A stretch of 56,848 nucleotides of DNA from Minisyncoccota bacterium (GTDB lineage Bacteria > Patescibacteriota > Minisyncoccia > UBA6257 > 02-FULL-45-10c), in contig JAQUPE010000004.1 in the NCBI GenBank assembly GCA_028716745.1, forward strand, positions 1-56,848. The letters are read 5' to 3'. Under the pieces are notes generated by a model. It was not told the DNA's origin. It searched no databases and saw only the letters and a list, made by a program, of their open reading frames with translations. Below are positions 8,003 to 43,794 of the stretch, in pieces. Both the position numbers and the translations under genes were made by a program. Position 1 is the stretch's first letter; every line of letters begins with the position of its first letter.

Positions 8003-8641
8003 TTATTTTTTAATTTCTTTTCTATAAGAAAAATAGGAATGAACTAATAAATAAAGAGTGGATGAAATAACGGAAATTATTACAACCCAGAAAGAATATT
8101 TTGGAACTAAAAGGCTGGATAAGGAAATGATTGCAACGAGACGAAATAATTTTCCTCCTAAGGCGTGGGTTACTCTCCAGACATTTTCGTTGCTTAGCGT
8201 CCACGGAGTTCGGATGCCTATGGACCAGTTTGGTTCTGCTTTCTCAACCAGGGTTCCTATCATATAAAACAGAGCGGCGAATGCCGGAACAATAAAGGCA
8301 GTGAAATTAAATCTTATATCAAGATTCCAGAGTATGGTAAGAATAAATATATAGAAAAAAAAGGCGAAAATAGTCGCTATAAAATTATCAAAATTTCCCC
8401 GGAATTTTTTAATATTTTCTGCTTTTGGATCCAGCTCGGGAATTATCAGGAATAGTAGATACATAAATACGGAAAGAAGAGGCATTAAAAACATTCCCCA
8501 AAACTTGGACATATATCCGTTTACTTGTCCTTGGGTGTTCCAATGAGAGGCGACTTGATCGGGCATTTGCGGATAAAAGTAGATTCCGACCGCAAAAGAC
8601 GCAACGATTATTAATAACGGAACAATTTTTATTATTTTCAT
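8003..8641 (-). CDS. SdpI/DUF1648 family membrane immunity protein
   Basis: VASHWNTQGQVNGY (DUF1648) and PNWSIGIRTPWTLSNENVWRVTH (SdpI). Confidence 0.88.
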   Translation of the reverse strand: MKIIKIVPLLIIVASFAVGIYFYPQMPDQVASHWNTQGQVNGYMSKFWGMFLMPLLSVFMYLLFLIIPELDPKAENIKKFRGNFDNFIATIFAFFFYIFILTILWNLDIRFNFTAFIVPAFAALFYMIGTLVEKAEPNWSIGIRTPWTLSNENVWRVTHALGGKLFRLVAIISLSSLLVPKYSFWVVIISVISSTLYLLVHSYFSYRKEIKK

Positions 8642-8712
8642 ACCGGGTAGTAGAAATTCGATTAATTACGTTTATTTGCCGTGCAGCAATTGAATTTTCA
8701 CTACCCGGCATA
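8639..8712 (-). repeat. TATG-flanked inverted-repeat element, copy 1 (66-bp core 8643-8708)
   Basis: Minus strand TATG-CCGGGTAGT GAAAATTCAATT gctgcacggcaaataaacgtaatt AATCGAATTTCT ACTACCCGG-TATG; the right-hand ATG is the SdpI start codon. Confidence 0.9.
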
Positions 8713-8717
8713 GCTTC

Positions 8718-8746
8718 ATTATATGAAAAAAGACCGAAAATAACAA
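8718..8746 (-). promoter_or_regulatory. sigma70 promoter, leaderless geometry
   Basis: TTGTTA-17 bp-TATAAT, 6 nt before the upstream ATG of the TATG duplication. Confidence 0.6.
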
Positions 8747-8796
8747 AGGGATTTACGGCTGGAAATTTTAGTAAAACAGCTTTATTATATAGAAAT

Positions 8797-8867
8797 TGCC
8801 AGGTCATCTAATGGTAGGATAGCGGACTCTGAATCCGCTCATCTTGGTTCGAGTCCAAGCCTGGCAG
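8797..8867 (+). tRNA. tRNA-Gln(CTG)
   Basis: TGCCAGG/CCTGGCA acceptor; GCGGA-CTCTGAA-TCCGC; CTTGG-TTCGAGT-CCAAG. Confidence 0.95.
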
Positions 8868-8945
8868 CCGCGAAAAGCGGCTTCGCCGCCTCGCGGCAAG
8901 CCGATTAAGCGAGTCCCGCGATGAGCGAAGCGAATTTTGCGGGAC
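8868..8945. other. GC-rich multi-hairpin element between tRNA-Gln and the GIY-YIG gene
   Basis: CGGCTT/AAGCCG stem enclosing GCCGC-ctc-GCGGC; GTCCCGCG...TGCGGGAC stem with a GAGCGAAGCGAA loop. Confidence 0.6.
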
Positions 8946-8974
8946 CAACTTAAACGAAGCCTAAAAATGAAAGT

Positions 8975-9247
8975 ATGTACTACGTTTATTTAATTCAATG
9001 TAAGGATAGGAGTATCTATACCGGCATCACAACTGATTTAAAAAGGCGTTTTCAAGAACATATTAATAAAATAGGCAGCCGCTATATTCGTGCGCATAAG
9101 GTAGATAAAATTTTATATTCCGAAAAGCATTCTACACGTAGTGGCGCCCTAAAAAGAGAGGCAGAGATAAAGAGCTGGCCTCGCGAAAAGAAGCTGAAGC
9201 TGGTGAATTCAAGCGGTTTGACTAGCCGTTCCAAATCTCTGATATAA
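8975..9247 (+). CDS. Small GIY-YIG nuclease (UPF0213/YazA-like)
   Basis: YYVYLIQC..SIYTGITTDLKRRFQEH; ALKREAEIKSWPREKK. Confidence 0.92.
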   Translation: MYYVYLIQCKDRSIYTGITTDLKRRFQEHINKIGSRYIRAHKVDKILYSEKHSTRSGALKREAEIKSWPREKKLKLVNSSGLTSRSKSLI

Positions 9248-9255
9248 TAATATTT

Positions 9256-10751: not shown

Positions 10752-11660
10752 ATGAGAGGGGGAAACATTCCCGTACTTATGGTGCAGGGGAGAACCTTGC
10801 CGGAAGTGTGGGAAAAGTCGTTGACGGAGACGTGGAATAAGGGCGTGCCGGTGAAAACCCAGTACGACCAGCCCACTGATCCGCCGAGCAGAGACGTGAG
10901 CATGGTGCTCGTGATCGAGGAGCCGTTCGCAGAGCCGAGAATTCACAAGAGCTTTCCGGGAGGACTGGAAAATCTTGAGATCTATCGGCAAGAAGTCGTT
11001 GAGGGCGTGCATGACTACTGGATTAATCCCGAAGAGGGAAAGTGGACATACACCTACCATCAGCGGCTGTTCAACTACCTGGCGTCCATCCGGGGCGACA
11101 AAAACAAAGTTCTGAATTTGCTCACTCCGGAAAAAACTCCCGTGAATGCCGTGAACCAGATCCAGTTCATCATCGACAGCCTGGCGAAGTCTCCGTTTTC
11201 CCGCCGCGCGCAGGGCATAACCTATATGCCTTCGTACGATCAGGGAACGGAAGATCCGCCTTGCCTGCAGAGAGTATGGTGCCGGATAGTTTACGGAGAG
11301 AACGGCGAGTGGGTGCTGAACATGAACACGCACTGGCGTTCACGCGACGCTTTCAAAGCGGCGTTCATGAACATCTTCGCGCTGACTGATCTCCAGAGAT
11401 ACATCGCGGAAGAAGTTTCCAAAAAAGCGGGCAGGCCGGTGAAAATCGGCAGGTACGCGGATATGATAGATTCCTATCATGTCTACGGAAGCTACTTCAA
11501 GGATTTCGAGGGTTTTCTCGAGTCCGTGGCGAAAAGATCTTTCGAGAGCAGGCTGTGGGATTCAAACGAAGAGATGGTCCAGGGCGCCTTCGAGGAAGGC
11601 AAGGCGATTCTCGCTAACGAGAAAGCCACTGGCCAAAAAGGAATGGCCAGTTCCAAATAG
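10752..11660 (+). CDS. thyA: Thymidylate synthase, short archaeal-like ThyA type
   Basis: YTYHQRL, SRRAQ, PPCL catalytic Cys, WRSRD, AAFMN, SYHVYG; start reset to ATG 10752 after AGGAGG (10741); GC-richer than flanks. Confidence 0.8.
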   Translation: MRGGNIPVLMVQGRTLPEVWEKSLTETWNKGVPVKTQYDQPTDPPSRDVSMVLVIEEPFAEPRIHKSFPGGLENLEIYRQEVVEGVHDYWINPEEGKWTYTYHQRLFNYLASIRGDKNKVLNLLTPEKTPVNAVNQIQFIIDSLAKSPFSRRAQGITYMPSYDQGTEDPPCLQRVWCRIVYGENGEWVLNMNTHWRSRDAFKAAFMNIFALTDLQRYIAEEVSKKAGRPVKIGRYADMIDSYHVYGSYFKDFEGFLESVAKRSFESRLWDSNEEMVQGAFEEGKAILANEKATGQKGMASSK

Positions 11661-20081: not shown

Positions 20082-22226
20082 ATGAAAAAATATTTATTAA
20101 GTTTGAGTATTTTAAGCTTTGGGATTATTTGTTCAATTGTTTTGATTGGACAGGCTGCTGCCCAAACAGCAACCACAACCCTTCAGCCGCAGGAACAGAA
20201 AATGCCTGGCGACATTCAATATCCTATTCCGGATTTGGGCAATTGCCAAAGCAAGGAAGATTGTAAAGTTTATTGCGATAATTCTAAAAACGTAGGGCCT
20301 TGTCTGGCTTTTGCGGAAAAACACAATTTGTTAAGCGAAGAAGAATTGGCCGCAGCTAAAAAGTTTAAATCGGCTGGAATGGTTGGCCCTGGCGGGTGCA
20401 AGGGGCAGGAGGCGTGTGATGAATATTGTGGCAATCCGGATAATATGGAAGCCTGCATTGCTTTTGCCGAGAAAAATAATATGATGCCGGCAGAAAAAAT
20501 GGCTGAAGCTAAAAAAGTTTTGGCAGCTATTAAAAAAGGCGTGAAGCCGCCTGCGTGCAAAGGACAAAAAGAATGCGATGCTTATTGCGAGGATTCGGTT
20601 CATATGGAAGAGTGCATTAATTTTGGCGTTGAGGCCGGATTTATGCAGGGCAAAGAATTAGAAGACGCTCAAAAAATGCTTGCTGCGCTTAAGAAAGGCG
20701 TTAAGCCTCTTCCGTGCAAGGGAAAGGCTGCTTGCGATGCATATTGCCAGACTCCTGATAATATGGAGACCTGCATGAATTTTGCCATAGAAGCCGGAAT
20801 GATGAATGAAGAAGAAAAGGCGAATTCTCAAAAAATGCTGCAGGCGATTAGGAAGGGTGTAAAGCCGCCGGCGTGCAAAGGACAAGCGGAATGCGATGCA
20901 TATTGCCAGAGCGAAGAGCATATGGAAGAGTGCATAAATTTTTCCGTAGCTGCCGGAATGATGGATGAAAAACAAGCCGAGATGGCGAAGAAGACAAAAG
21001 GAAAGGGGCCCGGAGGATGCAAAAATAAAGAAGAGTGCGAAGCATTTTGCAATAATCCGGACAATCAGGAAACTTGTTTCCAATTTGGAAAAGACAACGG
21101 AATGATTCCGGAGGAAGAATTGAAAAAAATGGAAGAAGGAAAGGCGCAGTTTAAAGAAACGATGAGCAATATGCCGCAAGAAGTTAAAGATTGTTTAAGC
21201 ACCGTGGTCGGAAGCGAAAAAGTGGAGAAATTTATATCCGGAGCAGCGATGCCTTCAAAAGAATTCGGAGATCAGATGAAAAATTGTTTTGATCAATTTA
21301 TGCCGAAGCGCGGCCAGGGCGGGCCGGGTGAGGGCGGGGATATGCCTCCGGGACAGGAGTGTAAAGGAGAAAACTGTCCGCCTTCTGGACAGAAATGCGA
21401 AGGAGAAAATTGCTCTCAGGGACAATTTCAGCCAAATCCGGGAATGACTAATCCGGGCGGACAAATGATGCCGGAGCAGGCAGGTCCGGGGGGATGTAAA
21501 GGACCAGAGGATTGTAAAGCATTTTGTGAAAAAAATCCCGAGCAGTGTAAAAATGTTCAAGGCAGTCTTCAAGGACAGGGTCAGCCCGGAATGATGGTGC
21601 CAAAATGCGAAGGAGAAGATTGCGTGCAAAAAATGCTCCAGTCTGGTCCGGAGAATCAGCAATTGCCAGGCGGAGAAGCTTTTAAAAATATAATAAATAG
21701 ATTTGCTCCCCAGGGGCAGCAACAGATGATGCAGGGATTTGAAAGCGAGTGTAAAGACGGATGCGATCAAGAATGTCCCGGAGCGTCGGGGACTAATTGC
21801 ATAAATGGAAAATGTGTTTGTTATCATGAACAAAAACAATCAATGCAGATGCAGCCAGGAACGCAGGGCCAGCAAATGGTGGGACAGCCTGGGCAACCGG
21901 GACAGCAAGTTGAAAACATGATGGCTCCTGGTACGGGCCTGCCCGGCCAGGGCGCGGGAATGGGTGCCGGATCTGGACAGTCTCCAGTAGTTACAGAGCA
22001 GCAGCAACAAATGATGCAACAGATACAGCAACAGGTAGATCAGCATGTACAACAACAAATGTTACAGGTACCAACAACTGAACAAATACAGCAGCAAATT
22101 CAGCAGGCTCCGCCGCCTCCTAGCGGTTTGCCATCGGAAGGCGAATCGACCCAGCCAAGCGGAAGCAATCAAAAGCAATCATTGTTGGGAACTGTTATGA
22201 GCGCATTTATATCGTTGTTCAAATAA
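20082..22226 (+). CDS. Exported Cys-rich repeat protein with Q/G/P-rich tail
   Basis: Signal peptide; six ~53-aa repeats with C-x5-C-x3-C-x8-C plus a shorter seventh; polyQ-like C-terminus. Confidence 0.85.
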   Translation: MKKYLLSLSILSFGIICSIVLIGQAAAQTATTTLQPQEQKMPGDIQYPIPDLGNCQSKEDCKVYCDNSKNVGPCLAFAEKHNLLSEEELAAAKKFKSAGMVGPGGCKGQEACDEYCGNPDNMEACIAFAEKNNMMPAEKMAEAKKVLAAIKKGVKPPACKGQKECDAYCEDSVHMEECINFGVEAGFMQGKELEDAQKMLAALKKGVKPLPCKGKAACDAYCQTPDNMETCMNFAIEAGMMNEEEKANSQKMLQAIRKGVKPPACKGQAECDAYCQSEEHMEECINFSVAAGMMDEKQAEMAKKTKGKGPGGCKNKEECEAFCNNPDNQETCFQFGKDNGMIPEEELKKMEEGKAQFKETMSNMPQEVKDCLSTVVGSEKVEKFISGAAMPSKEFGDQMKNCFDQFMPKRGQGGPGEGGDMPPGQECKGENCPPSGQKCEGENCSQGQFQPNPGMTNPGGQMMPEQAGPGGCKGPEDCKAFCEKNPEQCKNVQGSLQGQGQPGMMVPKCEGEDCVQKMLQSGPENQQLPGGEAFKNIINRFAPQGQQQMMQGFESECKDGCDQECPGASGTNCINGKCVCYHEQKQSMQMQPGTQGQQMVGQPGQPGQQVENMMAPGTGLPGQGAGMGAGSGQSPVVTEQQQQMMQQIQQQVDQHVQQQMLQVPTTEQIQQQIQQAPPPPSGLPSEGESTQPSGSNQKQSLLGTVMSAFISLFK

Positions 22227-31635: not shown

Positions 31636-31643
31636 GATAATAA

Positions 31644-31718
31644 TATGCCAGGCAGTGAAAATTCGATTGCTGCCGCGGCAGATAAATATAATTAATCGAA
31701 TTTCTACTGCCTGGTATG
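31644..31718 (+). repeat. TATG-flanked inverted-repeat element, copy 2 (67-bp core 31648-31714)
   Basis: TATG-CCAGGCAGT GAAAATTCGATT gctgccgcggcagataaatataatt AATCGAATTTCT ACTGCCTGG-TATG; the right-hand ATG is the dut start. Confidence 0.9.
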
Positions 31719-32141
31719 AAAATCAAAATTAAAAAACTTCATCCGGATGCGAAAGTTCCGAAATTCGCCAAAAAAAGCGATGCCGGAATGGATTTATTTT
31801 CATTGAATGAACATATAATACAGCCCGATCAAATTGTTTTAATAAATACTGGTATTGCCATGGAAATTCCCGAGGGTCATGTCGGTTTGATTTGGGACAA
31901 GAGCGGACTTTCCACTAAGGCTGGAGTTAAAACATTGGCAGGAGTTATTGATGCGGGATATCGCGGAGATGTTACAGTTTGTCTAATCAATCTTTCAAAA
32001 GAAGAATGCCATATCGAAAAAGGAGTTAAGGTGGCGCAGATTTTAATTCAAAAAATAGAACAGCCGGAAATAGAAGAGGCCGAAGAATTATCGGAAACAG
32101 ACAGAGGCGCGGGGGGATTTGGTTCAACTGGGCATAAATAA
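31716..32141 (+). CDS. dut: dUTP diphosphatase
   Basis: DAGMD, DKSGL, GVIDAGYRG, VAQ, RGAGGFGSTG. Confidence 0.95.
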   Translation: MKIKIKKLHPDAKVPKFAKKSDAGMDLFSLNEHIIQPDQIVLINTGIAMEIPEGHVGLIWDKSGLSTKAGVKTLAGVIDAGYRGDVTVCLINLSKEECHIEKGVKVAQILIQKIEQPEIEEAEELSETDRGAGGFGSTGHK

Positions 32142-34407: not shown

Positions 34408-34437
34408 ATTTTTACCAAAAATCCCCAGCCCTAAACC

Positions 34438-34473
34438 TGTATATTATATGTTACAATTATCATATACTATACA
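34438..34473 (-). repeat. 36-bp palindromic site A
   Basis: Minus strand TGTATAGTATATG-ATAATTGTAA-CATATAATATACA; just beyond the stop of the PaaX-like gene. Confidence 0.9.
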
Positions 34474-34475
34474 AC

Positions 34476-35048
34476 TTATATATTGAAGAATTTTCTAGCT
34501 TCTTTTTCGCGGGGAATGTCGCTTGCCTTGAAATAACAAATATTGTCGTCAATATCGATATTAAAAATCGCGCATAAAAATTCTATTTCTGGAATTATAT
34601 CGTAAGGATATACCCAAACGCTTTTTTGTAATTGATAAAGTCCGAGAGATCTTATTTTTCGGCTTAACGCCATGGATGCTTGCCGTTGCGATCCCGGTAT
34701 ATCATAAGTCATTATTCTCCAAAGTCCGTCCCAGTGTTTAGGCTTTTTAAGCATCATGTCTTGCAGATTATATTGTCTAACTAAATCTTTTCCATTTTGG
34801 GAAAGCGTCACGCGCACAGAACCGTTGTCCATTTCTTTTATCTCAATCAGCTTTCTTCTTTGCAGCTCCCTCAATTTTCTTGCTCTTTTGGCGGCCAATT
34901 TTCCATTTGGGTCTTTAAAATAAGTTTTTATTAAATTACTCAAGAAAAATGGGGAAGTTGAAGCAGCTAAAGTCATTAGCCCGTAAGAAGCGATTTTCAA
35001 AAGTGTGTCTTTTGTTAAATTATCTTTTAAAATAAATCCTTTAGCCAT
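34476..35048 (-). CDS. PaaX-like protein (winged helix + Cas2-like central domain)
   Basis: LRELQRRKLIEI...VTLSQNGK wHTH pattern; WDGLWRIMTYDIP and LGLYQLQKSVW PaaX/Cas2-like motifs. Confidence 0.8.
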   Translation of the reverse strand: MAKGFILKDNLTKDTLLKIASYGLMTLAASTSPFFLSNLIKTYFKDPNGKLAAKRARKLRELQRRKLIEIKEMDNGSVRVTLSQNGKDLVRQYNLQDMMLKKPKHWDGLWRIMTYDIPGSQRQASMALSRKIRSLGLYQLQKSVWVYPYDIIPEIEFLCAIFNIDIDDNICYFKASDIPREKEARKFFNI

Positions 35049-35056
35049 AAATTACT

Positions 35057-35092
35057 TGTATATTATATGATAATTGTATCATATAGTATACA
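35057..35092 (+). repeat. 36-bp palindromic site B
   Basis: TGTATATTATATG-ATAATTGTAT-CATATAGTATACA, 8 nt upstream of the PaaX-like start. Confidence 0.9.
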
Positions 35093-35206
35093 ACTCTAAG
35101 TTATGCACATACGGTCGTAATTGAGGTTGTTGTATAATATTTGTAAGCCTTGTGAGGGGGTGGCGCGAGCCATCTTTTTTATTTTTATAAATTAACAATT
35201 AAATAT

Positions 35207-35749
35207 ATGGATAATCAAAATAATATGAATCAGACAAATGAGGCCGGCGCGATGAGAAAAAGTTACTTGAAGCACGTCATTATCTTTTTGGCGATTGTTT
35301 TGGTCGCGGGGGGATTATATTGGGCGTGGAAGAATTATTGGAGTCCGGATGCGAAGTTGCAGAAAAATGTTGAGTTATATCAAAATGCTGTAAACACATA
35401 TGAAGAAGCCATGCGTAATGATACTTATGGAGGAAAAACTCCACAGGAAACTTTGGATATGTTTATTGAGGCTCTAAAGAAGGGAGATGTTGATTTGGCG
35501 AGTAAATATTTTGTGTTGGAAAGCACTGGAAGTCCGGATCCGCAATGGCTTATCGGTCTTCAGGAGACAGAAAAAGCAGGAAAATTGAATGACGTGGTAG
35601 GGCTTTTGCAGGGAGCAACACCAGACCTAGAAGGACGTACATCGGCCGATGATTTTAAGTTCAGAACTTATGAAAATGGCCAACTAAAAGCTTATATTAA
35701 TATGCAATTAAATGATGTGTCTAATATATGGAAGATAGAAAGTTTGTAA
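35207..35749 (+). CDS. Hypothetical membrane-anchored protein
   Basis: Single TM; DTYGGKTPQETLDMFIEALKKGDVDLASKYF motif. Confidence 0.75.
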   Translation: MDNQNNMNQTNEAGAMRKSYLKHVIIFLAIVLVAGGLYWAWKNYWSPDAKLQKNVELYQNAVNTYEEAMRNDTYGGKTPQETLDMFIEALKKGDVDLASKYFVLESTGSPDPQWLIGLQETEKAGKLNDVVGLLQGATPDLEGRTSADDFKFRTYENGQLKAYINMQLNDVSNIWKIESL

Positions 35750-38700
35750 AATTATTATTGATAATTTTGGTATTTGGAATTTTTGGTAGCAATGATGTTT
35801 TTGCCTATGGAGTTAAGACTCATGCTTTTTTAACGAACGAAATTTTTAATTTATATAATAAAAATTTTTCGAATAATCAATTGGTAAAAGATTATAAAAA
35901 TTTTCTTATAGATGGATCCATGAATGAAGATAGTGGAATTGTTCGTTCTTCAAATCATTTTTATGACCCCGTTTATGATCGTGGCTTATCTTACGACCCA
36001 GTTATTGACCCAATCAATTATGGAAATTGGCAAGAGTCTAAAAATTGGGCACAAGACGACAATAATCAAAATAAAATTCTTTACAAGGTACCAGGAACAA
36101 TAGCATCAATTTTAACGGCCATTCAACAAAGAAAAATATCAGTTATTTCTACAGAAACAAGTTTTGTTTGGCAAAAGGCCATAAGATATTGGATTGATGG
36201 AGACAAAGAAAAATCTATGTATGTATTGGGACACATTTTGCATTTAATAGAAGATGCGGCCGTACCAGATCATACGAGAAATGATGCGCATTTAACGGGT
36301 AGTATTTATGAAAAATACACTGAAAAATATACCGATTCTAATCCAGATAAAGAATTGAGTACAAAAATAATAAGTTTAAAGCCAATTATTTTATCAGACT
36401 TAGATATTTATTTTAATGATTTATCAAAATATTCTAATAATAATTTTTATAGTGAAGATACAATAGGAGTACAAAGTGGTTATAATTTTCCAGAACCAAT
36501 AAATTATGAAAATATTAATGATTTACGATATGGTTTAAATAAAGATAGTGAGGGATCATTTAAAATATCTTCACAACCAGTTATTTCTAGTATTTTAATA
36601 AGTGCTAAGGGGAATATAACTACTGATAACCCAAAGGTGCTTGATGATTATTGGTCCAGACTTTCTGTAAAGGCCGTCCAATATAGCGCCGGAGTTATAG
36701 ATTTATTCTTTAAAGAAGTTGAAAAAGCGAAAAATGATCCGAATTTTTTGAAAGATGAACAAAAGAGTTTTGTAGCGCAGGCAGTAGAAACAGTGGGAAA
36801 TTTTGTTTCGGGGGCGGTTGATAAAACAGCAGAGTTTTTCGGGCTAAATAAGGAAAATGGCTTTCAGCAAGTTACGGAGGTTGATTTAAATAATCAAGAA
36901 CAAAAACAAACTAAAAACAAGTTGGTAGAACCGGAAACAATATCCAAGGATATTCAGGAAAAGAGTAGCGAACAAGGTAGTGCCGAGGAGATTGAAAAAG
37001 AGCAGAATAAATCAATTGTTGATGAACAAGATGAAGATGCAATTGAGGCCGCAAAGCTAAAAGCTAAGTCGTTTGTGGCAACGAGCACTCCTACACCCAT
37101 TAAGCCAATAGAAACAGCAACGAATGTTAACTCTTCAATATCACTTCAAATACCGCAGATCTGTACTTTTAACACATCAAAGAGCCCCACTCATCAAGGC
37201 CTTTTAATTAATGAGGTTGCGTGGATGGGCGGGCCGGTAAGCGCTAATGATGAATGGTTTGAATTAAAAAATATTTCCGGCAAGGAATTGGATCTTTCTG
37301 ACTGGCAGATTTTAGACAAAGATGAAAATATAAAAATTACTTTTTCTAAAAACACAAAAATAAAAAAAGAAGGATTTTTAATTTTAGAGAGAACCGACGA
37401 CGAATCAGTTCCAGGAACTAAGGCAGATTTTATTTATTCCGGTGCTTTGTCTAATTCAGATGAAGGATTGAGATTATTTGATAAAAATTGTGATTTAATC
37501 GATGAGGTTTTGGCAGCGCCCGAATGGCCAGCCGGCAACTCAGAGGAGAGAAGAACAATGGAAAGAGATAATGATTTAAGTTGGCATAATTATAGCGCTG
37601 GCGGAGAAGTTATTTCTAATATTGTAATAAAAGGAACTCCGCGCCAAGAAAATAGCCCGAAAGTTTCTGCTTTTTTAGGAACAGGTGGTTCTGCTACGGT
37701 AGCCGTGCAGCAATCAGAGCAAGTTTCCCAGGCACAACAAACACAAGCCAATATTTCTATTACAGAAATAATGTATGATCTAGAAGGATCAGATGACGGA
37801 AGAGAATGGATAGAAATATTTAATGGAGGAAATGAGGCAGTTGACTTAACGAGTTGGAAATTTTTTGAAAATAATACAAATCATAATTTGTCCGTTTCAC
37901 AAGGTTCGGCAAATATTGTTGCGGGTGGTTATGCAATTATAGCGGACGACCCCGTTAAGTTTTTAGCAGACAACCCCTCTTTTATTGGAACAATATTAAA
38001 AAGCTCTTTTTCTCTAAGTAATACAGGAGAATTAATTGCAATTAAAAATGGAGATACTATTGTTGATGAAGTTACTTATTCATCCAGCATGGGCACAACT
38101 GGTGATGGAAAGTCATTACAAAAAATAAGCGATCAATGGCAAGCCGCTAATCCTACTCCAGGCGCTGAAAATAAAATTGTAGCCCAATCAAATCAAGCGC
38201 CAAACGCTTTTTTTGATTATGCAACGACGAGCTTATTTATCAATCAAGAAATTATTTTTAATGCAGCTTCATCAACTGATCCGGATGGACAAATAGCTCT
38301 ATATAATTGGGATTTTGGTGATAATGCAACAACCTCTAGTGCTTTTGCGACAACGACTCATATATTTAATGCTGCGGGAAATTATTCGGTGCAATTATCT
38401 GTAGTTGATAATATGGGTGATTCGGCAACTACCAGCTCTATAGTTGTTATTACCGAGGCAGTTTCCTCAACGCCCGCTGTAATTTTTGAAGAAATTAGCC
38501 ATGACGAAAGATTGGCAGTTCAATATGGCAATTATCGTACAGATCCAGCGAATGATTTACTTATGGGTCAAGGATCTTATACCCAAAAAATAACATCTCC
38601 AACAAATAATTTCGTTCATTCAATTGATGCAATGTTTGTTTATCCTTATGGGGAATATGTTGGTTCTTATATTAGTAGATTGACTATTAAAAATGATAAT

Positions 38701-39744
38701 AATGGACAGCCAGGAGAAGTTATTTCTTATGCGGAAATATCAACATATATTAATAGTGGCTGTTCAGCCAAGTTTTATACTTTTGTTTTTTCAGATAACC
38801 CATATCTCAAAGAAGGATCATCTTATTGGTTAGAACTTCAACGCATGGGGGACAGTCCTAACATTTTGATAACGGGAAATGAAGATGGTCTTTATACGAG
38901 CATCATAGGTTTTAGAGGAGATTTACAAATTATTGCACCAGAACAAGATAATGTTTTTTCTTCAAATTTTGTATTGAATGGAGGAGCGAAATCAACCACA
39001 GAATCTTTATTAGAAATAACTTATGGTCCTAGTCGTGCTAGAAGCGGAGAAAATATTATAACAACAATATCTTTAGCATCGGCAGAAAACTATCAGGACT
39101 GGAGCTGGGATACAAATATACAACCTGGTTCATGGGTTGTGTGCGCGCGTTTAAAAAATAGCAACGAAACATTGTTGGAAGAGGATTTTCTTTATGTAGG
39201 AGTAAATAGTTCTTCGGGGACAGAGCAGCCAACAAATTTTTCTGGAGAAAAAATTGTTTTAATTTCACAAAATGATGAATCGATAACGTCTTGTAGTGGT
39301 AATGCCGATTTATGCGGACAGCAAATCTTTTCTTTGCAGAGCGGATTTTTAGAAAGTATTAAATTAAAAATTAATTATCCTTTTGGTCAGTATGAGGCGG
39401 GAGATTTTATAAGTCGTCTTATTCTAAAAGGAGATAATAATGGCCAGCCAGGGGAAGAAATTAAAACATCAGAAAATTTTAGTATTTATTTAAACCCCTC
39501 TTCTTTGCCTGGAACATTCGAGGCAAATTATATTTTTTCTACATCAACGCCGGTATTTTTAGAAAGCCAAAAATTCTACTGGCTTTTCTTTGAAGATCTT
39601 AACGATATTAATGGAATAACTATAGTCGGAAGCAGCTTAGATGAAAGCATTACGGGCAATCTTTGGAATAACGGCATCGTTCACGAAAAAGGAGATTGGT
39701 ATATGGAAATCTCGGGGGACAAGGGAACAACTCCTCTGCAATAA
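35728..39744 (+). CDS. Large exported protein: Zn-dependent phospholipase C/P1-like domain, two lamin-tail domains, PKD domain, C-terminal repeats
   Basis: Signal peptide; YGVKTH, NHFYDP, LGHILHLIEDAAVPDH, YEKY; LINEVAW..DEWFELKN and ITEIMYD..EWIEIFN; DPDGQIALYNWDFGD; two DNNGQPGE repeats. Confidence 0.8.
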   Translation: MEDRKFVKLLLIILVFGIFGSNDVFAYGVKTHAFLTNEIFNLYNKNFSNNQLVKDYKNFLIDGSMNEDSGIVRSSNHFYDPVYDRGLSYDPVIDPINYGNWQESKNWAQDDNNQNKILYKVPGTIASILTAIQQRKISVISTETSFVWQKAIRYWIDGDKEKSMYVLGHILHLIEDAAVPDHTRNDAHLTGSIYEKYTEKYTDSNPDKELSTKIISLKPIILSDLDIYFNDLSKYSNNNFYSEDTIGVQSGYNFPEPINYENINDLRYGLNKDSEGSFKISSQPVISSILISAKGNITTDNPKVLDDYWSRLSVKAVQYSAGVIDLFFKEVEKAKNDPNFLKDEQKSFVAQAVETVGNFVSGAVDKTAEFFGLNKENGFQQVTEVDLNNQEQKQTKNKLVEPETISKDIQEKSSEQGSAEEIEKEQNKSIVDEQDEDAIEAAKLKAKSFVATSTPTPIKPIETATNVNSSISLQIPQICTFNTSKSPTHQGLLINEVAWMGGPVSANDEWFELKNISGKELDLSDWQILDKDENIKITFSKNTKIKKEGFLILERTDDESVPGTKADFIYSGALSNSDEGLRLFDKNCDLIDEVLAAPEWPAGNSEERRTMERDNDLSWHNYSAGGEVISNIVIKGTPRQENSPKVSAFLGTGGSATVAVQQSEQVSQAQQTQANISITEIMYDLEGSDDGREWIEIFNGGNEAVDLTSWKFFENNTNHNLSVSQGSANIVAGGYAIIADDPVKFLADNPSFIGTILKSSFSLSNTGELIAIKNGDTIVDEVTYSSSMGTTGDGKSLQKISDQWQAANPTPGAENKIVAQSNQAPNAFFDYATTSLFINQEIIFNAASSTDPDGQIALYNWDFGDNATTSSAFATTTHIFNAAGNYSVQLSVVDNMGDSATTSSIVVITEAVSSTPAVIFEEISHDERLAVQYGNYRTDPANDLLMGQGSYTQKITSPTNNFVHSIDAMFVYPYGEYVGSYISRLTIKNDNNGQPGEVISYAEISTYINSGCSAKFYTFVFSDNPYLKEGSSYWLELQRMGDSPNILITGNEDGLYTSIIGFRGDLQIIAPEQDNVFSSNFVLNGGAKSTTESLLEITYGPSRARSGENIITTISLASAENYQDWSWDTNIQPGSWVVCARLKNSNETLLEEDFLYVGVNSSSGTEQPTNFSGEKIVLISQNDESITSCSGNADLCGQQIFSLQSGFLESIKLKINYPFGQYEAGDFISRLILKGDNNGQPGEEIKTSENFSIYLNPSSLPGTFEANYIFSTSTPVFLESQKFYWLFFEDLNDINGITIVGSSLDESITGNLWNNGIVHEKGDWYMEISGDKGTTPLQ

Positions 39745-39766
39745 TTAAAATCAGCTAATTTCAAGT

Positions 39767-39802
39767 TGTATATTATATGATAATTGTAACATATAGTATA
39801 CA
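39767..39802 (+). repeat. 36-bp palindromic site C
   Basis: TGTATATTATATG-ATAATTGTAA-CATATAGTATACA, between convergent genes. Confidence 0.9.
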
Positions 39803-39863
39803 GGTTTTAGATATAAAAAAACCGTCACCTTGCGAGCGACGGTACATCCAGAGAATAACTGTG

Positions 39864-40085: not shown

Positions 40086-40089
40086 GCTC

Positions 40090-40563: not shown

Positions 40564-40576
40564 TCCTTTTTCTCCT

Positions 40577-40975: not shown

Positions 40976-41083
40976 TTTATCTACCCTCTCTTTTTTTGAA
41001 GATGTGTAAAAATAACTGGTTATATTTAAGCAATTTTTAGGTAATTTGTCAAGAAAATTTACTAAATCTCGCAAATTAAAACC

Positions 41084-41119
41084 TGTATAGTATATGATAA
41101 TTGTATCTTATAATATACA
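41084..41119 (+). repeat. 36-bp palindromic site D
   Basis: TGTATAGTATATG-ATAATTGTAT-CTTATAATATACA, 6 nt beyond the pilin-LamG stop. Confidence 0.88.
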
Positions 41120-41125
41120 AGTTTT

Positions 41126-42409
41126 TTATTTGGTGGCGTTATAGATTGCCATAACTTCCGAAACGGTGAGGGCGCGATTATAAATGCGAACATCATCCAT
41201 GTAGCCTTTCATAAATCCGGAGAACCAGCCGTTGCCGGATGCGTGGCCGATTTCAAACTTAACGCTTGTGTTCACAACTGTTTTGAGCGGATAAGTGAGC
41301 GCACTGCTGGCATACAAAACTCCATTTTTATAAAAATAAATATTTGCATCTGTAATTACCCAAGTTACAAAGGCCCATTCATTAAAAGAAGTCCAAGCTG
41401 CTCCAGATAAATCCCAATGCCAGACAGGGGCTCCTTGGGGAGCAGCAAAAAACATATTGCTTCCTTCGGCAGAGCTTCTAAGAAAATCGTAATAGCCTGT
41501 GCTGTTATCGCTTAAGCAAATAAATCCTCTGTGTGTATTATTGTCTACAATATAAACCCAGGCGCTGGTTGTAAAATTTGTTGTTAAGTTTAGGGGAGCG
41601 GCATAATTTACTCTTACTTCGTCGTCCGTTCCATTATATTGTCCCGCATAAGAACCAACTTTGCCCGCGACGTAGTGAGTGCCTGTGCCTGCCCATGTTC
41701 CGGAATAATTGCTTCCCGATGTGTCATATACTGTCGCTCCGGCGCCTTCTTCAAAATCCCACTGGCCTATCATTCCTAAATCCCTTAGCGAAGGAGTTAA
41801 ATCCAAATGAGTTCCTACTTGATAAACTCCCGGGAACATTCCTCCGTCGTTTATGGCGACATCATGCTTGTCTTCAGATTCCAATTTAGCGGTAAGTTCC
41901 CAAGAACCGCCTGTTACATATGTATAGTAAAGTCCGTTGGTCGCCGTGTTTGTCGGATCTACCGGTAATGAGGCGATTTTGGCGCCGTAAGTAGAAGCTG
42001 TAGTGAAATCTACCGGCACCCAGCCTGTGCCGTCTACTCTTCTATAATTAACGGCCGTTTTGCATGAATAGGTCCAGCCCGCCGGAAGCGTTGGCAGGGA
42101 ATAGCCGGCGCAAGTTGCGGAGTTGTCAGGCAGGGAAGTATAAACAATATTTGCGGTGCCGAGCGAAGCGCTTCCGAAAGATTGGGTTAAGGAAACTAAT
42201 TGATTAACAGTTTGCATATCCGATAAGCGTTGGCTGTCTCGTGATTGTTTGAATAATTGATCGGGTCTTAAAACAATAACTGCAACAGTTGTCAGTATTG
42301 CCAAAATTCCTAAGACAACAACAAGTTCCACTAAAGTGAAACTTGCCCGCCCGCCGGCATGGGATGCCCGCGGGTCGTTAATAAAATTTATTTTTTTATT
42401 TTGTTGCAT
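41126..42409 (-). CDS. Type IV prepilin N-terminus fused to LamG domain (paralog 1)
   Basis: S/FTLVELVVVLGILAIL, RDSQRLSD, LPVDP; LamG GQWDFEE...GYMDDVRIYNRAL. Confidence 0.88.
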   Translation of the reverse strand: MQQNKKINFINDPRASHAGGRASFTLVELVVVLGILAILTTVAVIVLRPDQLFKQSRDSQRLSDMQTVNQLVSLTQSFGSASLGTANIVYTSLPDNSATCAGYSLPTLPAGWTYSCKTAVNYRRVDGTGWVPVDFTTASTYGAKIASLPVDPTNTATNGLYYTYVTGGSWELTAKLESEDKHDVAINDGGMFPGVYQVGTHLDLTPSLRDLGMIGQWDFEEGAGATVYDTSGSNYSGTWAGTGTHYVAGKVGSYAGQYNGTDDEVRVNYAAPLNLTTNFTTSAWVYIVDNNTHRGFICLSDNSTGYYDFLRSSAEGSNMFFAAPQGAPVWHWDLSGAAWTSFNEWAFVTWVITDANIYFYKNGVLYASSALTYPLKTVVNTSVKFEIGHASGNGWFSGFMKGYMDDVRIYNRALTVSEVMAIYNATK

Positions 42410-43703
42410 TGTATAAAGCTAAAATTTCAGCGGCGGTGAGAGCGCGGCTATAAATTCTAAGATCGTCGATATACCCATACCAATATTCTCCTCCGGCGGC
42501 ATAAGCTCCAATGCCCAAAGTGTTTGAGCCGACTTCGCTTATAGCTCCGCTTTTACTAGCCGTAGATTGCAGAGCTCCATTTAAATAAGATTTTGAATTA
42601 TTTGAGCTGACATTATTATCATATGTATAAGCCACAAATTGCCAGATATCTTGAGTGAGAGAAACGCTGCTCATGGTTTGTTCAGTTGGAATTTTTAAAG
42701 TTAAATTTAAATTGCTGCTTCCATTTGCATGGCGCAAATACCAATTGTAAGGAGTATCTCCGGTTTTCATTAATATGTGCTGGTAGGCTCCTGTTTGACT
42801 AAAGTTTCCAGGATTAACCCACGCAATAATAGTTATTGCATTAACCAGCCTGAGGCTTTCTCCGGTCGCAACGCTTATCTTATCATTTGTTCCATTAAAT
42901 TGTCCGGAATAATTTCCAACTTTTGCTCCGGCATAATGAGTTCCGCTTCCGGCCCATGTTCCAGTATTATTATTTCCGCTTGCGTCGTAAGTAGTCGCAG
43001 AGCTTCCTCCTTCTTCAAAATTCCAATATCCGACAAGAGAAGATTCTCCATAATCTACCGGCAAAAGAGTCATGTCATTTCCTATTTCATAAAGTTCCGG
43101 GAAACTTCCTCCGTCATCAGATGTGGAATCGCTGGAACCGCCCATTTTATATTTTTCAGATTCAAGCGCTGTAGCAAGATGCCAAGAGCCGCCGGGTATA
43201 TATGAAAGGAAAAGATTGCCGGTTGTGGTATTTGATGGATCAATTGGCAGAGTTGCAAACATTGAGCCCACTAGGGATGCGAAAGAAGCGAAATCTAAAG
43301 GTAGCCAGCCTGTGCCGTCTATATCTCTATATGTTCCTTCCGGGGCGCAATGGTATGAATATCCTGCGGGAAGATCCGGGAGAGAAGAGTATTCGTCGCA
43401 GTCGGTATCTCCATCCGTTGCAGGCAGGGAAATATAAACAACATTGGCTGTGCCCATAGATGTCCCTCCGGCGGCTTGAAATAAGGATAATGCCGTATTT
43501 ATTGATTGGAGGTCGGATAATCTCTGGGAATCCCTGGCTTGTTTAAAGAGCTGATCGGGTCTTATAACAATTACTGTTACTGTCGCTAATATAGCCAGGA
43601 TGCCCAGGACGACCACAAGTTCAATGAGAGTAAAACTTGCCCGCCCGCTGGCGCGGGAAGCTAAAGATAAGTTTGAATTTGAGCGGGCTTTATAAGGTTT
43701 CAT
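42396..43703 (-). CDS. Type IV prepilin N-terminus fused to LamG domain (paralog 2)
   Basis: S/FTLIELVVVLGILAIL, RDSQRLSD, LPIDP; LamG GYWNFEE...GYIDDLRIYSRAL. Confidence 0.88.
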   Translation of the reverse strand: MKPYKARSNSNLSLASRASGRASFTLIELVVVLGILAILATVTVIVIRPDQLFKQARDSQRLSDLQSINTALSLFQAAGGTSMGTANVVYISLPATDGDTDCDEYSSLPDLPAGYSYHCAPEGTYRDIDGTGWLPLDFASFASLVGSMFATLPIDPSNTTTGNLFLSYIPGGSWHLATALESEKYKMGGSSDSTSDDGGSFPELYEIGNDMTLLPVDYGESSLVGYWNFEEGGSSATTYDASGNNNTGTWAGSGTHYAGAKVGNYSGQFNGTNDKISVATGESLRLVNAITIIAWVNPGNFSQTGAYQHILMKTGDTPYNWYLRHANGSSNLNLTLKIPTEQTMSSVSLTQDIWQFVAYTYDNNVSSNNSKSYLNGALQSTASKSGAISEVGSNTLGIGAYAAGGEYWYGYIDDLRIYSRALTAAEILALYNATK

Positions 43704-43724
43704 TTATATTCTAAAATTAGGTCT

Positions 43725-43794
43725 TATGCCGGGTAGTGAAAATTCGATTGCTGCACGGCAGGTATAATTAATCGAATTTCTACTACCCAGTATG
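43725..43794 (+). repeat. TATG-flanked inverted-repeat element, copy 3 (62-bp core 43729-43790)
   Basis: TATG-CCGGGTAGT GAAAATTCGATT gctgcacggcaggtataatt AATCGAATTTCT ACTACCCAG-TATG; the right-hand ATG is the TrmH-family start. Confidence 0.9.

Follow-up and report, generated by a model that had tools for sequence, protein, structure and literature searches.

Short palindromic elements at start codons in Patescibacteria and a parent element carrying a GIY-YIG nuclease gene

Three short palindromic elements (c1, c2 and c3) are located in the window, that is, the whole 56,848-nt stretch of DNA from a Minisyncoccota bacterium that was analysed here. All three are MITEs: non-autonomous derivatives, shortened by deletion, of a tiny mobile element with a wide but patchy distribution in Patescibacteria. 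In the reading we favour, with a probability of roughly 0.78, the parent is a GIY-YIG element of about 320 bp that captures the ATG of a host gene, and the copies were moved via its nuclease. That the GIY-YIG protein moves the element is inferred; there is no biochemical or genetic evidence for it.

Three MITE copies in the window

Copy c1 (66 bp, 8643–8708, minus strand) has 20-bp arms, CCGGGTAGTGAAAATTCAAT and ATCGAATTTCTACTACCCGG, which enclose a small inner hairpin and an A/T-rich spacer beside the right arm. The left, promoter-side TATG of its target duplication lies at 8709–8712 and the right TATG at 8639–8642 (both minus strand); the ATG of the latter (8641–8639) is the start of an SdpI-like gene (8003–8641). 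A host promoter of a leaderless gene is predicted at 8718–8746 on the minus strand (TTGTTA at 8746–8741, 17 nt, TATAAT at 8723–8718), with its TATAAT 6 nt from the A of the left ATG. Copy c2 (67 bp, 31648–31714, plus strand; CCAGGCAGTGAAAATTCGAT ... ATCGAATTTCTACTGCCTGG) is located between a left TATG at 31644–31647 and a right TATG at 31715–31718 (both plus strand). The left ATG opens a relic mini-ORF at 31645–31695 (MPGSENSIAAAADKYN, then a stop). The stop codon of this mini-ORF is that of the parent element and lies 20 nt upstream of the right ATG (31716), the start of dut (31716–32141). The predicted promoter of c2 (31610–31638, plus strand) is composed of TTGGAA (31610–31615), 17 nt and TAAGAT (31633–31638), again 6 nt from the A of the left ATG. 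Copy c3 (62 bp, 43729–43790, plus strand; CCGGGTAGTGAAAATTCGAT ... ATCGAATTTCTACTACCCAG) has a single outer-stem mismatch. Its left TATG (43725–43728, plus strand) opens a mini-ORF at 43726–43767 (MPGSENSIAARQV, then a stop) and has a -10-like TAAAAT upstream at 43712–43717, and the ATG at 43792 in its right TATG (43791–43794, plus strand) is the start of a SpoU/TrmH-like methylase gene (43792–44286). The promoters at c1 and c2 were read from the sequence, the general leaderless pattern and a family-wide peak of -10-like hexamers described below.

The first-pass annotation had described three copies of 62–67 bp with TATG on both sides, and all of its coordinates and features were reproduced. 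The right-hand ATG, which it took as a gene start, is a true start at all three copies, as protein-domain matches begin near or at the N-terminus: DUF1648 and SdpI domains start at residue 10 of the ORF at 8003–8641, the dUTPase domain covers residues 12–139 of the 141-aa dut product, and the SpoU_methylase profile match starts at residue 1. The arm motifs occur exactly three times in the window, against 0.01 and 0.09 expected from shuffles. There is no full-length element in the 57-kb window. A free-standing gene for a 90-aa GIY-YIG protein (8975–9247, plus strand) stands behind a tRNA, at a distance of 270 bp from c1. No arms are recognisable beside it, and its product is only 34% identical to the element-borne nuclease. 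It is possible that this gene supplies the nuclease in trans, but its membership of the system is uncertain.

Insertion sites of the family

More than 180 distinct copies were found in Patescibacteria genomes and metagenomes, and the short copies are true insertions. Of 180 distinct copies, 129 are flanked by perfect 4-bp direct repeats. Relatives have orthologous sites that are empty and hold only one TATG or CATG, which had been proposed beforehand as a check (L178 and L210 versus L258, L157 versus L044, L225 versus L095). Some copies have inserted into the arm of another, with duplication of AAAA (L053, L075, L085, L088, L095, L107, L134), and others form tandem arrays with a common TATG (L253, L194, L370). 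The internal deletion junction is identical in c1, c2 and c3, although these lie at three unrelated genes, and thus the short form itself moved. The earlier proposal of a MITE with a 4-bp TATG duplication is therefore right as to the MITE and the length of the duplication but not as to TATG specificity: the repeat is Y-N-N-R, with TATG the commonest, the first base never G and the last never C, and the TTG of -35 boxes is a second hot spot.

About 47% of family copies are on a start codon and about 17% on the TTG of a -35 box. Among copies with a YATR repeat, 60 of 72 (83%) lie where an ORF of 50 aa or more begins, whereas 24–39% would be expected from the non-coding YATR sites of the window (p = 1e-14 and 4e-26). 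This bears out the expectation that other copies would also be duplicated and on start codons, and it excludes survivorship, suggested earlier, as the sole cause of the bias. Among copies with TTGA, CTTG or TTTG repeats, a -10-like hexamer follows at a spacing of 16–18 nt in 20 of 28, at exactly 17 nt in 15 of these; other spacings, taken as background, have 0–4, mostly 1–3. The flanking repeats are symmetric (TTGA 5 versus TCAA 5; CTTG 5 versus CAAG 6). Relative to the gene, copies at start codons are oriented 68 forward and 8 reverse by the core and 73 and 3 by the interior, whereas orientation at -35 sites is about random (11 forward, 16 reverse).

Family-wide, -10-like hexamers peak 6–8 nt upstream of the left ATG. 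Window genes are mostly without a Shine-Dalgarno sequence and have TATAAT 5–8 nt ahead of the ATG. Judging from these sequence signals, leaders would be largely absent in the window genome and the start codon would often be the transcription start as well. Start codons within operons are also occupied (L344, L354), some copies adjoin tRNA 3' ends, and one adjoins a tmRNA 5' end. Neither reading frame nor stop is conserved among the mini-ORFs of the MITEs: 44 end within the element, 17 run on into the host gene and 7 are fused to it in frame. If translated, 9 of the 76 start-codon MITEs would give an in-frame N-terminal extension; most would not.

Parent element, nuclease gene and hairpin

The full element is 305–331 bp long and has 20-bp inverted arms (CCNGGTAGTGAAAATTCGAY ... 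RTCGAATTTCTACTACCNGG) and TATG flanks as in the MITEs. The one gene in it codes for a GIY-YIG nuclease of 88 aa, from the Slx1/UPF0213 branch of structure-specific endonucleases. An autonomous partner with the same termini had been anticipated; the gene-carrying partner exists, but it encodes this Slx1-like nuclease and not a classical transposase. The order TATG, arm, GIY-YIG ORF, arm, TATG and host ATG is found in L194 (8557–8900), L088 (186–583), L344, L354, L364, L370 and L376. With L194, the window copies have 23 nt in common on the left and 25 nt on the right, including the L194 stop codon. The great majority of insertions are at the ATG of a host gene, with the element co-oriented with that gene; insertion leaves one ATG before the element and regenerates one behind it. 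The called host gene begins 21–22 nt past the end of the nuclease gene in four of five look-ups, the exception, P0094, being called further downstream.

In the subfamily of the window copies, the nuclease ORF lacks recognisable start signals for its translation. The ORF can be read in frame without interruption from the captured host ATG, with its N-terminus, MPGSENS.., encoded by the left arm, as far as a stop at the right arm's edge, exactly 20 nt ahead of the regenerated host ATG. MPGSENS or a close variant is the N-terminus in 36 of 45 fetched sequences and stands behind extra upstream residues in 5 more; of the 120 closest homologues, 111 have a length of 96 aa or more; linker indels are of whole codons; and the internal Met has given way to Ile or Val in 4 of 36 aligned sequences. 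Of 41 full-length elements sampled more broadly, 29 have a flanking ATG and only 13 of these 29 are in frame and open from it, so in-frame capture characterises one subfamily and does not extend to the family as a whole.

Homologues of the nuclease number 767 proteins, with 412 loci in species-representative genomes across Patescibacteria classes. The nuclease matches Pfam GIY-YIG (E = 1e-16), and the catalytic residues are invariant in 36 sequences of 70–88% identity. The best match of its AlphaFold model (pLDDT 82) is Slx1 (E = 2.4e-4), followed by UPF0213 BH0048; I-TevI and UvrC match only at E of about 1. On the basis of sequence and model, the nuclease is predicted to be intact and of Slx1 type. 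Arms of six further families were seen in the fetched loci, in each case on either side of a related GIY-YIG ORF. For three of these families gene-less derivatives exist elsewhere, and four copies of these families likewise abut start codons. The pairing of seven arm families each with a related GIY-YIG ORF is the signature of the element's own mobility gene.

The arm covariation noticed at first sight (CCAGGC/GCCTGG versus CCGGGT/ACCCGG) is real and holds across 173 distinct members: at stem positions 1, 3, 4, 6, 18, 19 and 20 both sides vary while 90–99% Watson-Crick pairing is kept. The interruption of the stem, also described earlier, exists and could be refined to an invariant tandem G.T and A.C mismatch at positions 10–11. 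The foot of the hairpin has a GTAG motif, as in REPs.

Alternative origins and proposed mechanism

It remains possible, though unlikely, that the copies are ordinary MITEs of a classical (e.g. DDE-type) IS whose transposase lies undiscovered elsewhere, the GIY-YIG gene being a passenger or a late acquisition. A symmetric 4-bp duplication is a typical product of DDE transposases, and the symmetric Y...R rule and the near-random orientation at -35 sites suit a dimeric enzyme of this type and a classical IS, respectively. The IS1380 family is listed with 'CC' ends and 4–5 bp repeats, and we know of no GIY-YIG transposase. However, the roughly 1.5 Mb of sequence around 229 element loci yielded no classical transposase, and no transposase-like family is enriched or adjacent there. 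Solo arms bracket nothing but GIY-YIG genes or nested copies, parsed full-length elements uniformly have the length given above and this single ORF, and each arm family has its GIY-YIG partner. The covariation of the terminal bases, which are not fixed, would also be unusual for sequence-specific end binding.

Much less tenable is a free-standing GIY-YIG homing endonuclease gene that spreads only by double-strand-break repair between alleles, with the short copies decayed in place and not transposing. GIY-YIG is a classic fold of homing endonucleases, and each of the nuclease proteins that recur unchanged in many samples occupies a single genomic locus; among these loci no full-length copy was caught in very recent transposition. 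A 16S rRNA gene (L186) contains a related GIY-YIG ORF flanked by TIRs, and rRNA-gene insertions are known in CPR bacteria (PMC11270868). Like these insertions and the homing genes for I-TevI and phage T4 Seg, the present element is a compact selfish gene whose sole product is a GIY-YIG nuclease. Homing, however, yields neither target duplications nor hundreds of occupied, unrelated start codons, nor does it account for nested and tandem insertions or the shared deletion junction. Homing enzymes use DNA-binding domains to recognise one long cognate site without inverted repeats, whereas the present protein is a bare Slx1/UPF0213-type catalytic domain bracketed by inverted repeats, nearest in fold to Slx1 and not I-TevI. 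A 2006 phylogenomic survey placed selfish GIY-YIG enzymes in the UvrC lineage and regarded the Slx1-like proteins of prokaryotes as repair factors passed on by vertical inheritance (PMC1564403).

As RNA, c1–c3 have folding energies of -29 to -37 kcal/mol (z = -6.4 to -8.3; 0 of 200 shuffles as stable), UAUG/UAUG pairing also sequesters both AUGs, and UUCG- and GNRA-like loops are found in the inner hairpins. Although these features and the strong orientation bias would suit a vertically inherited leader that controls translation or stability of a regulon, as the first-pass annotation had considered, this origin is the least credible of all and is rejected, being contradicted by the empty sites, the varied duplications, the nested and tandem copies and those upstream of -35 boxes or beside tRNA and tmRNA genes, by the absence of copies in 523 kb from 80 other Patescibacteria genomes, by the dut of the closest relative, which has no element, by host genes without functional coherence, and by an Rfam search in which no family reached threshold.

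Neisseria Correia/NEMIS and enterobacterial ERIC are bacterial MITEs that fold into RNA hairpins. Like the present family, they are small, gene-less, palindromic and multi-copy, with terminal inverted repeats and a short target duplication, and they lie near genes, are co-transcribed and have orientation-dependent effects. They differ in that TA is duplicated and in that they derive from or are moved by DDE-type enzymes, whereas the present family has a Y-N-N-R repeat, sites at the start codon/+1 and the -35 hexamer, arms covarying round an invariant mismatch and a nuclease-encoding parent. Rickettsia palindromic elements insert in frame, and mycobacterial MIRUs have small ORFs overlapping neighbouring stop and start codons; both are palindromic or short repeats of reduced or compact genomes, kept only where compatible with translation. 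No nuclease-encoding parent is known for either, and the present element sits exactly on the ATG, which it duplicates, with few in-frame extensions. Yeast Ty3 offers an analogy only: this mobile element integrates where Pol III starts transcription of host genes, at a distance of no more than one or two bases. It is, however, a eukaryotic LTR retrotransposon tethered by transcription factors, whereas no tethering has been shown for the present element, which also uses operon-internal start codons. In IS200/IS605 with their PATE derivatives and in REP/REPIN-RAYT systems (REPIN, PMC3116915; RAYT, PMC3333891), HUH Y1 enzymes act on DNA hairpins. Both groups resemble the present element in very small size, ends that matter as imperfect hairpins more than as sequence, tetranucleotide-level target choice and miniatures moved in trans. 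They have, however, two unlike ends and insert in one orientation 3' of a fixed tetranucleotide without duplication, whereas the present element is one hairpin over its whole length with a symmetric repeat, and its enzyme is GIY-YIG, not HUH.

In the mechanism we propose for the GIY-YIG element, the nuclease would recognise the arms as an extruded hairpin or cruciform, which may be why they covary to stay paired while the mismatch is invariant. The nuclease would cut, host repair or ligation would complete the movement, and arm-only MITEs would be moved in trans. To our knowledge, GIY-YIG enzymes are hydrolytic nucleases without known strand-transfer activity. The element would take over the promoter, +1 and start codon of the host gene; most genes of the window genome appear leaderless, so that +1 would be the A of the ATG. 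The host gene would then be translated either by reinitiation after termination or through unfolding of the hairpin by ribosomes. RNA data for element-bearing genes were looked for but none were found, so transcription from the host promoter and the mode of translation after insertion are inferred.

No earlier description of the element was found in the literature searched, and it is apparently undescribed. Most probably, c1–c3 are parasites of nearly neutral effect, which give the dut, SpoU and SdpI-like mRNAs a stable hairpin at the 5' end. Through duplication of the ATG, the parasite and the host gene each keep a start codon.

Window copies and their family

The three inverted-repeat copies reported by the first-pass annotation are present at 8643-8708 (minus strand; c1), 31648-31714 (c2) and 43729-43790 (c3). 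They are 66, 67 and 62 bp long and, as had been described, each is flanked on both sides by TATG. That annotation also took the right-hand ATG, behind each element, for the start of an unrelated gene, and Pfam domain positions bear this out: a DUF1648 plus SdpI gene follows c1 (8003-8641, minus strand), the dUTPase gene dut follows c2 (31716-32141), and a SpoU methylase gene, whose Pfam profile starts at residue 1, follows c3 (43792-44286). Two arm motifs each occur three times in the window, against 0.01 and 0.09 occurrences expected in shuffles. On folding, the single-stranded copies form one long hairpin of -29 to -37 kcal/mol (z -6.4 to -8.3), to which the UAUG/UAUG flanks contribute four extra pairs. 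A TATAAT-like box lies 6-8 nt upstream of the left ATG, before the element, in all three copies, and a -35-like hexamer at 17 nt has 4/6 matches in two copies and 3/6 in the third. Matches to Rfam 15 at the gathering score in the window were tRNAs only; at the element there were only sub-threshold generic hairpin matches to miRNA models.

The exact two-arm pattern was found in at least 114 stretches of species-representative genomes, nearly all Patescibacteria, and in at least 120 stretches of metagenomes. The matches listed come from Paceibacteria/Parcubacteria groups, Saccharibacteria, Gottesman-, Doudna- and Berkelbacteria and others, and the window genome belongs to Paceibacterota. After removal of duplicates, 180 distinct copies remained among the matches listed from genomes and metagenomes. 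They form a large family of MITEs, gene-less derivatives of a longer element, confined to Patescibacteria in nearly all of these matches. The family is patchy: 523 kb of sequence from 80 other Patescibacteria genomes, retrieved by way of an unrelated gene, contained no copy even when up to two substitutions were allowed in each arm.

MITE length is 62-67 bp in the window and 40-81 bp family-wide. Outermost in each copy is a 4-nt direct repeat, followed inwards by an outer stem of 6 bp, CCNGG(T/A/C), then a core and a variable interior; the core AGTGAAAATTC(G)... pairs with ...(C)GAATTTCTACT. The arms, which are 20-bp terminal inverted repeats, are 90-100% paired except for fixed mismatches at positions 10 and 11, invariably G.T and A.C. 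The covariation of the arms first noticed between the window copies is real and general: in 173 distinct sequences, stem positions 1, 3, 4, 6, 18, 19 and 20 vary on both sides while remaining 90-99% Watson-Crick (position 3 is A-T in 70, C-G in 62 and G-C in 31), and compensated core variants such as AAATTTC/GAAATTC also occur. A scan permitting a perfect palindrome gave 101 asymmetric members and no perfect true member; the 12 perfect-palindrome variants that it matched were rejected, as none belongs to the family. Since the arms covary and yet one mismatch is fixed, pairing is selected together with one specific pairing defect. This suggests that what is recognised is a folded strand and not a pair of duplex ends.

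Several other repeats were encountered. Another family carries the 11-mer AGTGAAAATTC in perfectly palindromic form (..GAGATTC AGTGAAAATTCACTGAA..) without CCNGG ends (L174, L187, L198, L202, L205, L243 and L247, loci of metagenome Ga0058701 and others). In the window, a second, unrelated palindromic repeat, TTGTATATTATATGATAATTGTATCATATAGTATACAA, has four copies (34437-34497, 35056-35116, 39766-39826 and 41083-41143) around a block containing, among other things, an ORF of 1338 aa (35728-39744). In one contig from the source metagenome, 34476 is linked directly to 41123 at full depth (12.1) and 6646 bp are missing, so the population varies in whether it has this block. Inside a 714-aa ORF (20082-22226), the stretch 20385-20975 comprises four to five coding repeats of 159 bp in tandem, with Cys-rich units that are 60-77% identical. 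The adjacent genes 41126-42409 and 42396-43703 (minus strand) are paralogues whose 3' regions, the sole stretch compared, show 72% identity over 85 nt; a domain scan of one of them gave a pilin-like N-terminal methylation motif and a Laminin_G_3 domain.

Insertion and choice of site

A TATG target duplication had been proposed from the window copies. Its fixed length of 4 bp holds, but it is not specific for TATG. Among the matches listed, a perfect 4-bp flanking repeat is present in 129 of the 180 distinct copies, the repeats being TATG (58), AAAA (11), CATA (8), CAAG (6), TTGA, TTTG, CTTG and TCAA (5 each) and others. In these matches no repeat begins with G or ends with C, which gives a symmetric Y-N-N-R rule. 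Empty sites, which had been suggested as a check, were sought with 'excised' queries against all fetched DNA. Three clean orthologous filled/empty pairs were obtained, alignable on both flanks and with a single TATG or CATG when empty: L178 and L210 versus L258, L157 versus L044 before an rpsT-like gene, and L225 versus L095 before an mraZ-like gene. Nested copies, one lying inside another's arm with an AAAA duplication, were also found, and copies in tandem arrays have their repeat in common. The closest relative of the window genome, L262 (Tgt 84% and Dut 96% identical), was rejected as a clean empty site; it lacks the element before dut but has a different 53-nt spacer there. The empty-site joint was not found in the source landfill metagenome (DNA contigs only), and no polymorphism was seen in the window's population. 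'Target memory' by cohesive ends is unlikely in its strict form, as close non-ATG relatives differ in repeat (TTTG in L049, CAAG in L137).

About 47% of the copies among the matches listed have an NATG repeat and lie on a start codon, and 60 of the 72 with a YATR repeat (83%) open an ORF of at least 50 aa. The first-pass annotation suggested that this bias may be mere survivorship. No coding sequence clearly interrupted by a copy was found. The window is 94% coding, with 3031 of 54407 nt (5.6%) non-coding, and of its non-coding YATR sites 29 coincide with start codons, 46 lie no more than 45 nt upstream of a start and the other 46 lie elsewhere. The start-codon share expected from these sites is 24-39% against the 83% observed (p = 1e-14); survival in non-coding DNA is therefore insufficient to explain the bias. 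A second class (about 17% of the matches listed) has the repeats TTGA, CTTG and TTTG or their complements, lying on the first bases of the -35 hexamer; in 20 of 28 such copies a -10-like hexamer follows at 16-18 nt, in 15 of these at exactly 17 nt. Single copies abut tRNA 3' ends in L079 (about 3555-3700) and L046 (about 6320-6850) and the mature 5' end of the tmRNA gene in L039 (1-430). In L079 the element's own first bases, CCA, come right behind the tRNA end.

Most window genes have no Shine-Dalgarno sequence and carry a TATAAT-like box 5-8 nt upstream of the ATG, which suggests that the mRNAs would be mostly leaderless. A few genes have GGAGG, e.g. those that start at 12928 and 29815. Across the family, -10-like hexamers are most frequent 6-8 nt upstream of the left ATG, so that the insertion point may in many cases also be the transcription start, though no RNA-seq data are available for the window or for three other loci. 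Start codons inside operons are hit as well, the upstream gene's stop codon lying 3 nt before TATG in L344 and L354. Orientation is about random at -35 sites (11 versus 16) and biased at start codons, 68 versus 8 by core asymmetry and 73 versus 3 by interior among the matches listed. In the favoured interior orientation the small hairpin comes first and the A/T-rich spacer lies beside the gene. This is because the spacer derives from the 3' end of the parent element's ORF, which is co-oriented with the host gene.

Two full-length elements, in L442 and L457, lie within a Shine-Dalgarno sequence, 3-4 nt before the host ATG and not on it, with repeats GAGG and AGGA/GGAG. A right flank AAAGGTCGA(G/A)G is common to five copies from different genomes (L020, L057, L105, L114 at 5335-5400, and L129); L114 and L129 have a GGAGG-rich left flank ahead of the copy, and the L114 site lies behind a release-factor gene. 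The conserved flank of these five loci, AAAGGTCGAGG, matched neither RNase P RNA nor another Rfam family, and no ORF start fits it. It may be an unrecognised structured RNA or mark an old, vertically inherited insertion.

The full-length element and its nuclease

An autonomous transposase with the same termini had been listed as something to look for. A gene-carrying partner does exist; what it encodes is a GIY-YIG nuclease and not a classical transposase. Its first trace was the 'nested' locus L088 (186-583), an ORF-containing host element of about 400 bp. Clean full-length copies were then recognised in L194 (8557-8900), L344, L354, L364, L370 and L376, and 41 further full-length elements were parsed among loci L382-L461. 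Clean copies consist of TATG, the left arm, a linker of 2-4 codons, an ORF of 88 aa whose stop abuts the right arm, the right arm, and TATG with the host gene. The element is co-oriented with that gene, and the distance from stop codon to host ATG is always 20 nt. The window MITEs retain the first 23 and last 25 nt of the L194-type element, including the AAT TAA stop codon, so their A/T-rich spacer is what is left of the ORF's Lys/Asn-rich 3' end. One deletion junction is common to c1, c2 and c3 at three unrelated genes, which indicates that the short form itself has moved. MITEs contain only relic mini-ORFs without a conserved frame and have no coding capacity for a mobility protein. The criteria for a MITE are thus met: a small, gene-less unit, terminal inverted repeats, a duplication of fixed length, empty sites and a gene-carrying element with the same termini. 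The window copies are MITEs, a known kind of element, of a parent that is a new variant.

The sole ORF matches Pfam GIY-YIG (PF01541; E = 1e-16), with T5orf172 as a weaker second match. The residues Y16, Y27, G29, R37, H41, N42 and E73 of the catalytic site are invariant in 36 sequences that are 70-88% identical. By sequence, the UPF0213 proteins BH0048 and EF2693 are the closest relatives of solved structure, followed by Slx1 (phmmer against PDB: 1zg2 at 4e-4, 1ywl at 2e-3). A single-sequence structure model was unusable (pLDDT 49); with the AlphaFold model built from the alignment (pLDDT 82), the best Foldseek hit was Slx1 (7cq2_A, E = 2.4e-4, probability 1.0), and I-TevI and UvrC reached only E of about 1. 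In sequence and predicted fold, the nuclease is closest to Slx1/UPF0213 (COG2827-type) and not to UvrC or I-TevI; cleavage of branched, hairpin or cruciform DNA is inferred from this likeness.

No transposase of DDE, DEDD, HUH, serine or tyrosine type is encoded, the GIY-YIG gene being the single ORF. The element might instead belong with IS200/IS605-PATE or REP/REPIN-RAYT systems, which are characterised by absence of a duplication, unlike ends, one orientation and an HUH Y1 gene. These criteria are not met: the element has symmetric repeats, both orientations at -35 sites and a single hairpin spanning it, and the fetched loci showed no HUH gene. This does not rule out a single-strand mechanism as such. 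A homing endonuclease would share the intact GIY-YIG active site, but a single long target, an extra DNA-binding domain and duplication-free homing are lacking. The nuclease is only the catalytic domain of 88 aa, elements lie at hundreds of unrelated sites with 4-bp repeats, and the score against the NCBIfam group I intron endonuclease model, 26.7 bits, falls far short of the 56 bits required. A transposase acting from elsewhere found no support by guilt of association, since among clustered ORFs of 229 element loci only housekeeping families and the GIY-YIG cluster recur. Phage or viral carriers were represented by two chance matches only.

In the fetched loci, related small GIY-YIG ORFs are also enclosed by six more inverted-repeat families (CCCGTTAGAGA, CCCCGCACCTTTT, CCCACACATAAC, CCAGCATTAACTTTT, CCAGCACTTTCTTTGCGCTA and AAATTTTTGACTCG); five of the six begin with CC, and three have gene-less derivatives in other genomes. 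Four copies of these families adjoin ATG start codons (e.g. dnaJ in L105), three copies have an AT duplication in common, and one in L115 lies on a -35 box with a TTGA duplication. In L186 (about 11100-11410), a small GIY-YIG ORF between 20-bp inverted repeats CCAGCACTTTCTTTGCGCTA is located inside a 16S rRNA gene, which links the class to the rRNA-gene insertions known in CPR bacteria. ORF and arms thus co-evolve, which is what one would expect of a nuclease that moves its own element; mobilisation itself is inferred. In the window, a free-standing GIY-YIG gene for 90 aa (8975-9247) lies behind a tRNA gene (8797-8867). No inverted repeats are recognisable around it, and its 3' end overlaps the -10 box of the next leaderless gene (start 9256).

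Start-codon capture and a possible mode of movement

The left arm, read from the flanking ATG, encodes the peptide MPGSENS. The N-terminus is MPGSENS or a close variant (MPGSRNS, MSGSENS) in 36 of 45 fetched sequences, with the motif behind extra upstream residues in five more. Database proteins matching the L194 ORF number 767, and 111 of the best 120 of these have at least 96 aa. Linker length differs by whole codons only (..SIIMF.., ..STAAIMF..). The internal Met is replaced by Ile or Val in 4 of 36 aligned sequences, so that there the captured ATG is the only start codon. In a broader sample of 41 full-length elements, from 412 loci in species-representative genomes, a left-flank ATG is present in 29 and is in frame and open in only 13; in-frame capture is therefore a trait of the subfamily of the window copies and not of all relatives. 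For this subfamily, in-frame start-codon capture is firmly supported at the level of predicted reading frames. The MPGSRNS variants belong to elements with swapped core mismatch order and unchanged ORF direction, and their existence accounts for MITEs with a reverse core and a forward interior. A conserved leader peptide was rejected, as the left-ATG ORF (MPGSENS..) in MITEs lacks a conserved frame or stop and is a relic of the parent's N-terminus. Gene callers already join the arm-encoded MPGSENS to hundreds of database proteins, and starts near such hairpins may be mis-set.

Any mechanism has to accommodate what is observed: elements insert at ATG and -35 sites with a repeat of 4 bp, their hairpin covaries but keeps a fixed mismatch, they carry a single Slx1-like gene, and the ORF has the geometry described above relative to both ATGs. 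We infer that the nuclease would recognise the extruded hairpin or cruciform and then cut, and that excision and insertion would be completed by host ligation or repair. The host promoter would drive transcription of the element, and in the main subfamily translation would begin at the captured ATG, although RNA data are lacking. The ribosome would terminate 20 nt before the regenerated host ATG and then reinitiate, or may simply unfold the hairpin. Since the element must be expressed and the host gene must survive, selection on both would favour exactly the start-codon site. Such two-sided selection could turn a modest preference for Y-A-T-R targets into the bias that is seen.

In MITEs, neither a conserved mini-ORF nor a convincing internal promoter was found, and a promoter scan inside c2 gave none. 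A candidate outward promoter made of TCGACN in the left arm as -35 and a -10 in the A/T spacer occurs in 35 of 68 copies; shuffled interiors give 16.4 +/- 3.8 and the reverse strand gives 21, and there is no sharp spacing peak. It is weak and is neither adopted nor excluded. TCTACT in the right arm was considered as the -10 box of a new leaderless start and was dropped, as its second position is not the key A. For expression of the host gene, ribosome hopping from one AUG to the other and excision or processing of the RNA (RNase III, P or Z-like) are possibilities only, with no data either way.

In a full-text literature search, no account was found of prokaryotic GIY-YIG genes flanked by inverted repeats, of Patescibacteria MITEs or of elements inserted at leaderless start sites. 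In a 2006 survey of the GIY-YIG superfamily, prokaryotic Slx1-like proteins were regarded as vertically inherited repair factors, and selfish members were derived from the UvrC lineage (PMC1564403). A bolder joint reading, to which we give a probability of about one half, is that of a new prokaryotic transposon superfamily in which a minimal Slx1-like, structure-specific GIY-YIG nuclease, acting on the element's own hairpin or cruciform ends with host ligation or repair, replaces a transposase. The same estimate covers the start-codon capture lifestyle: with no promoter or start codon of its own, the element would be translated from the host ATG and hand the ribosome to the regenerated ATG 20 nt past its stop.

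Should the nuclease turn out to be what mobilises the element, the parent would represent a new transposon superfamily, and a hydrolytic GIY-YIG nuclease would join the short list of enzymes that move prokaryotic transposons. Stand-alone Slx1/UPF0213-like GIY-YIG proteins are widespread in prokaryotes and are regarded as repair factors. Their appearance here as a selfish element's mobility gene offers a possible function for this orphan family. The arms and the 88-aa protein would be among the smallest candidate DNA-insertion systems and may become a tool; genetics is scarce in Patescibacteria. The dut, SpoU and SdpI-like genes sit behind a hairpin of about -30 kcal/mol, and such hairpins at the 5' end of leaderless mRNAs are a natural experiment bearing on how leaderless translation copes with structure. 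The parasitic strategy fits a streamlined genome with little non-coding DNA: the element sits on the start codon or transcription start and regenerates it, so that host gene and parasite share their expression signals.
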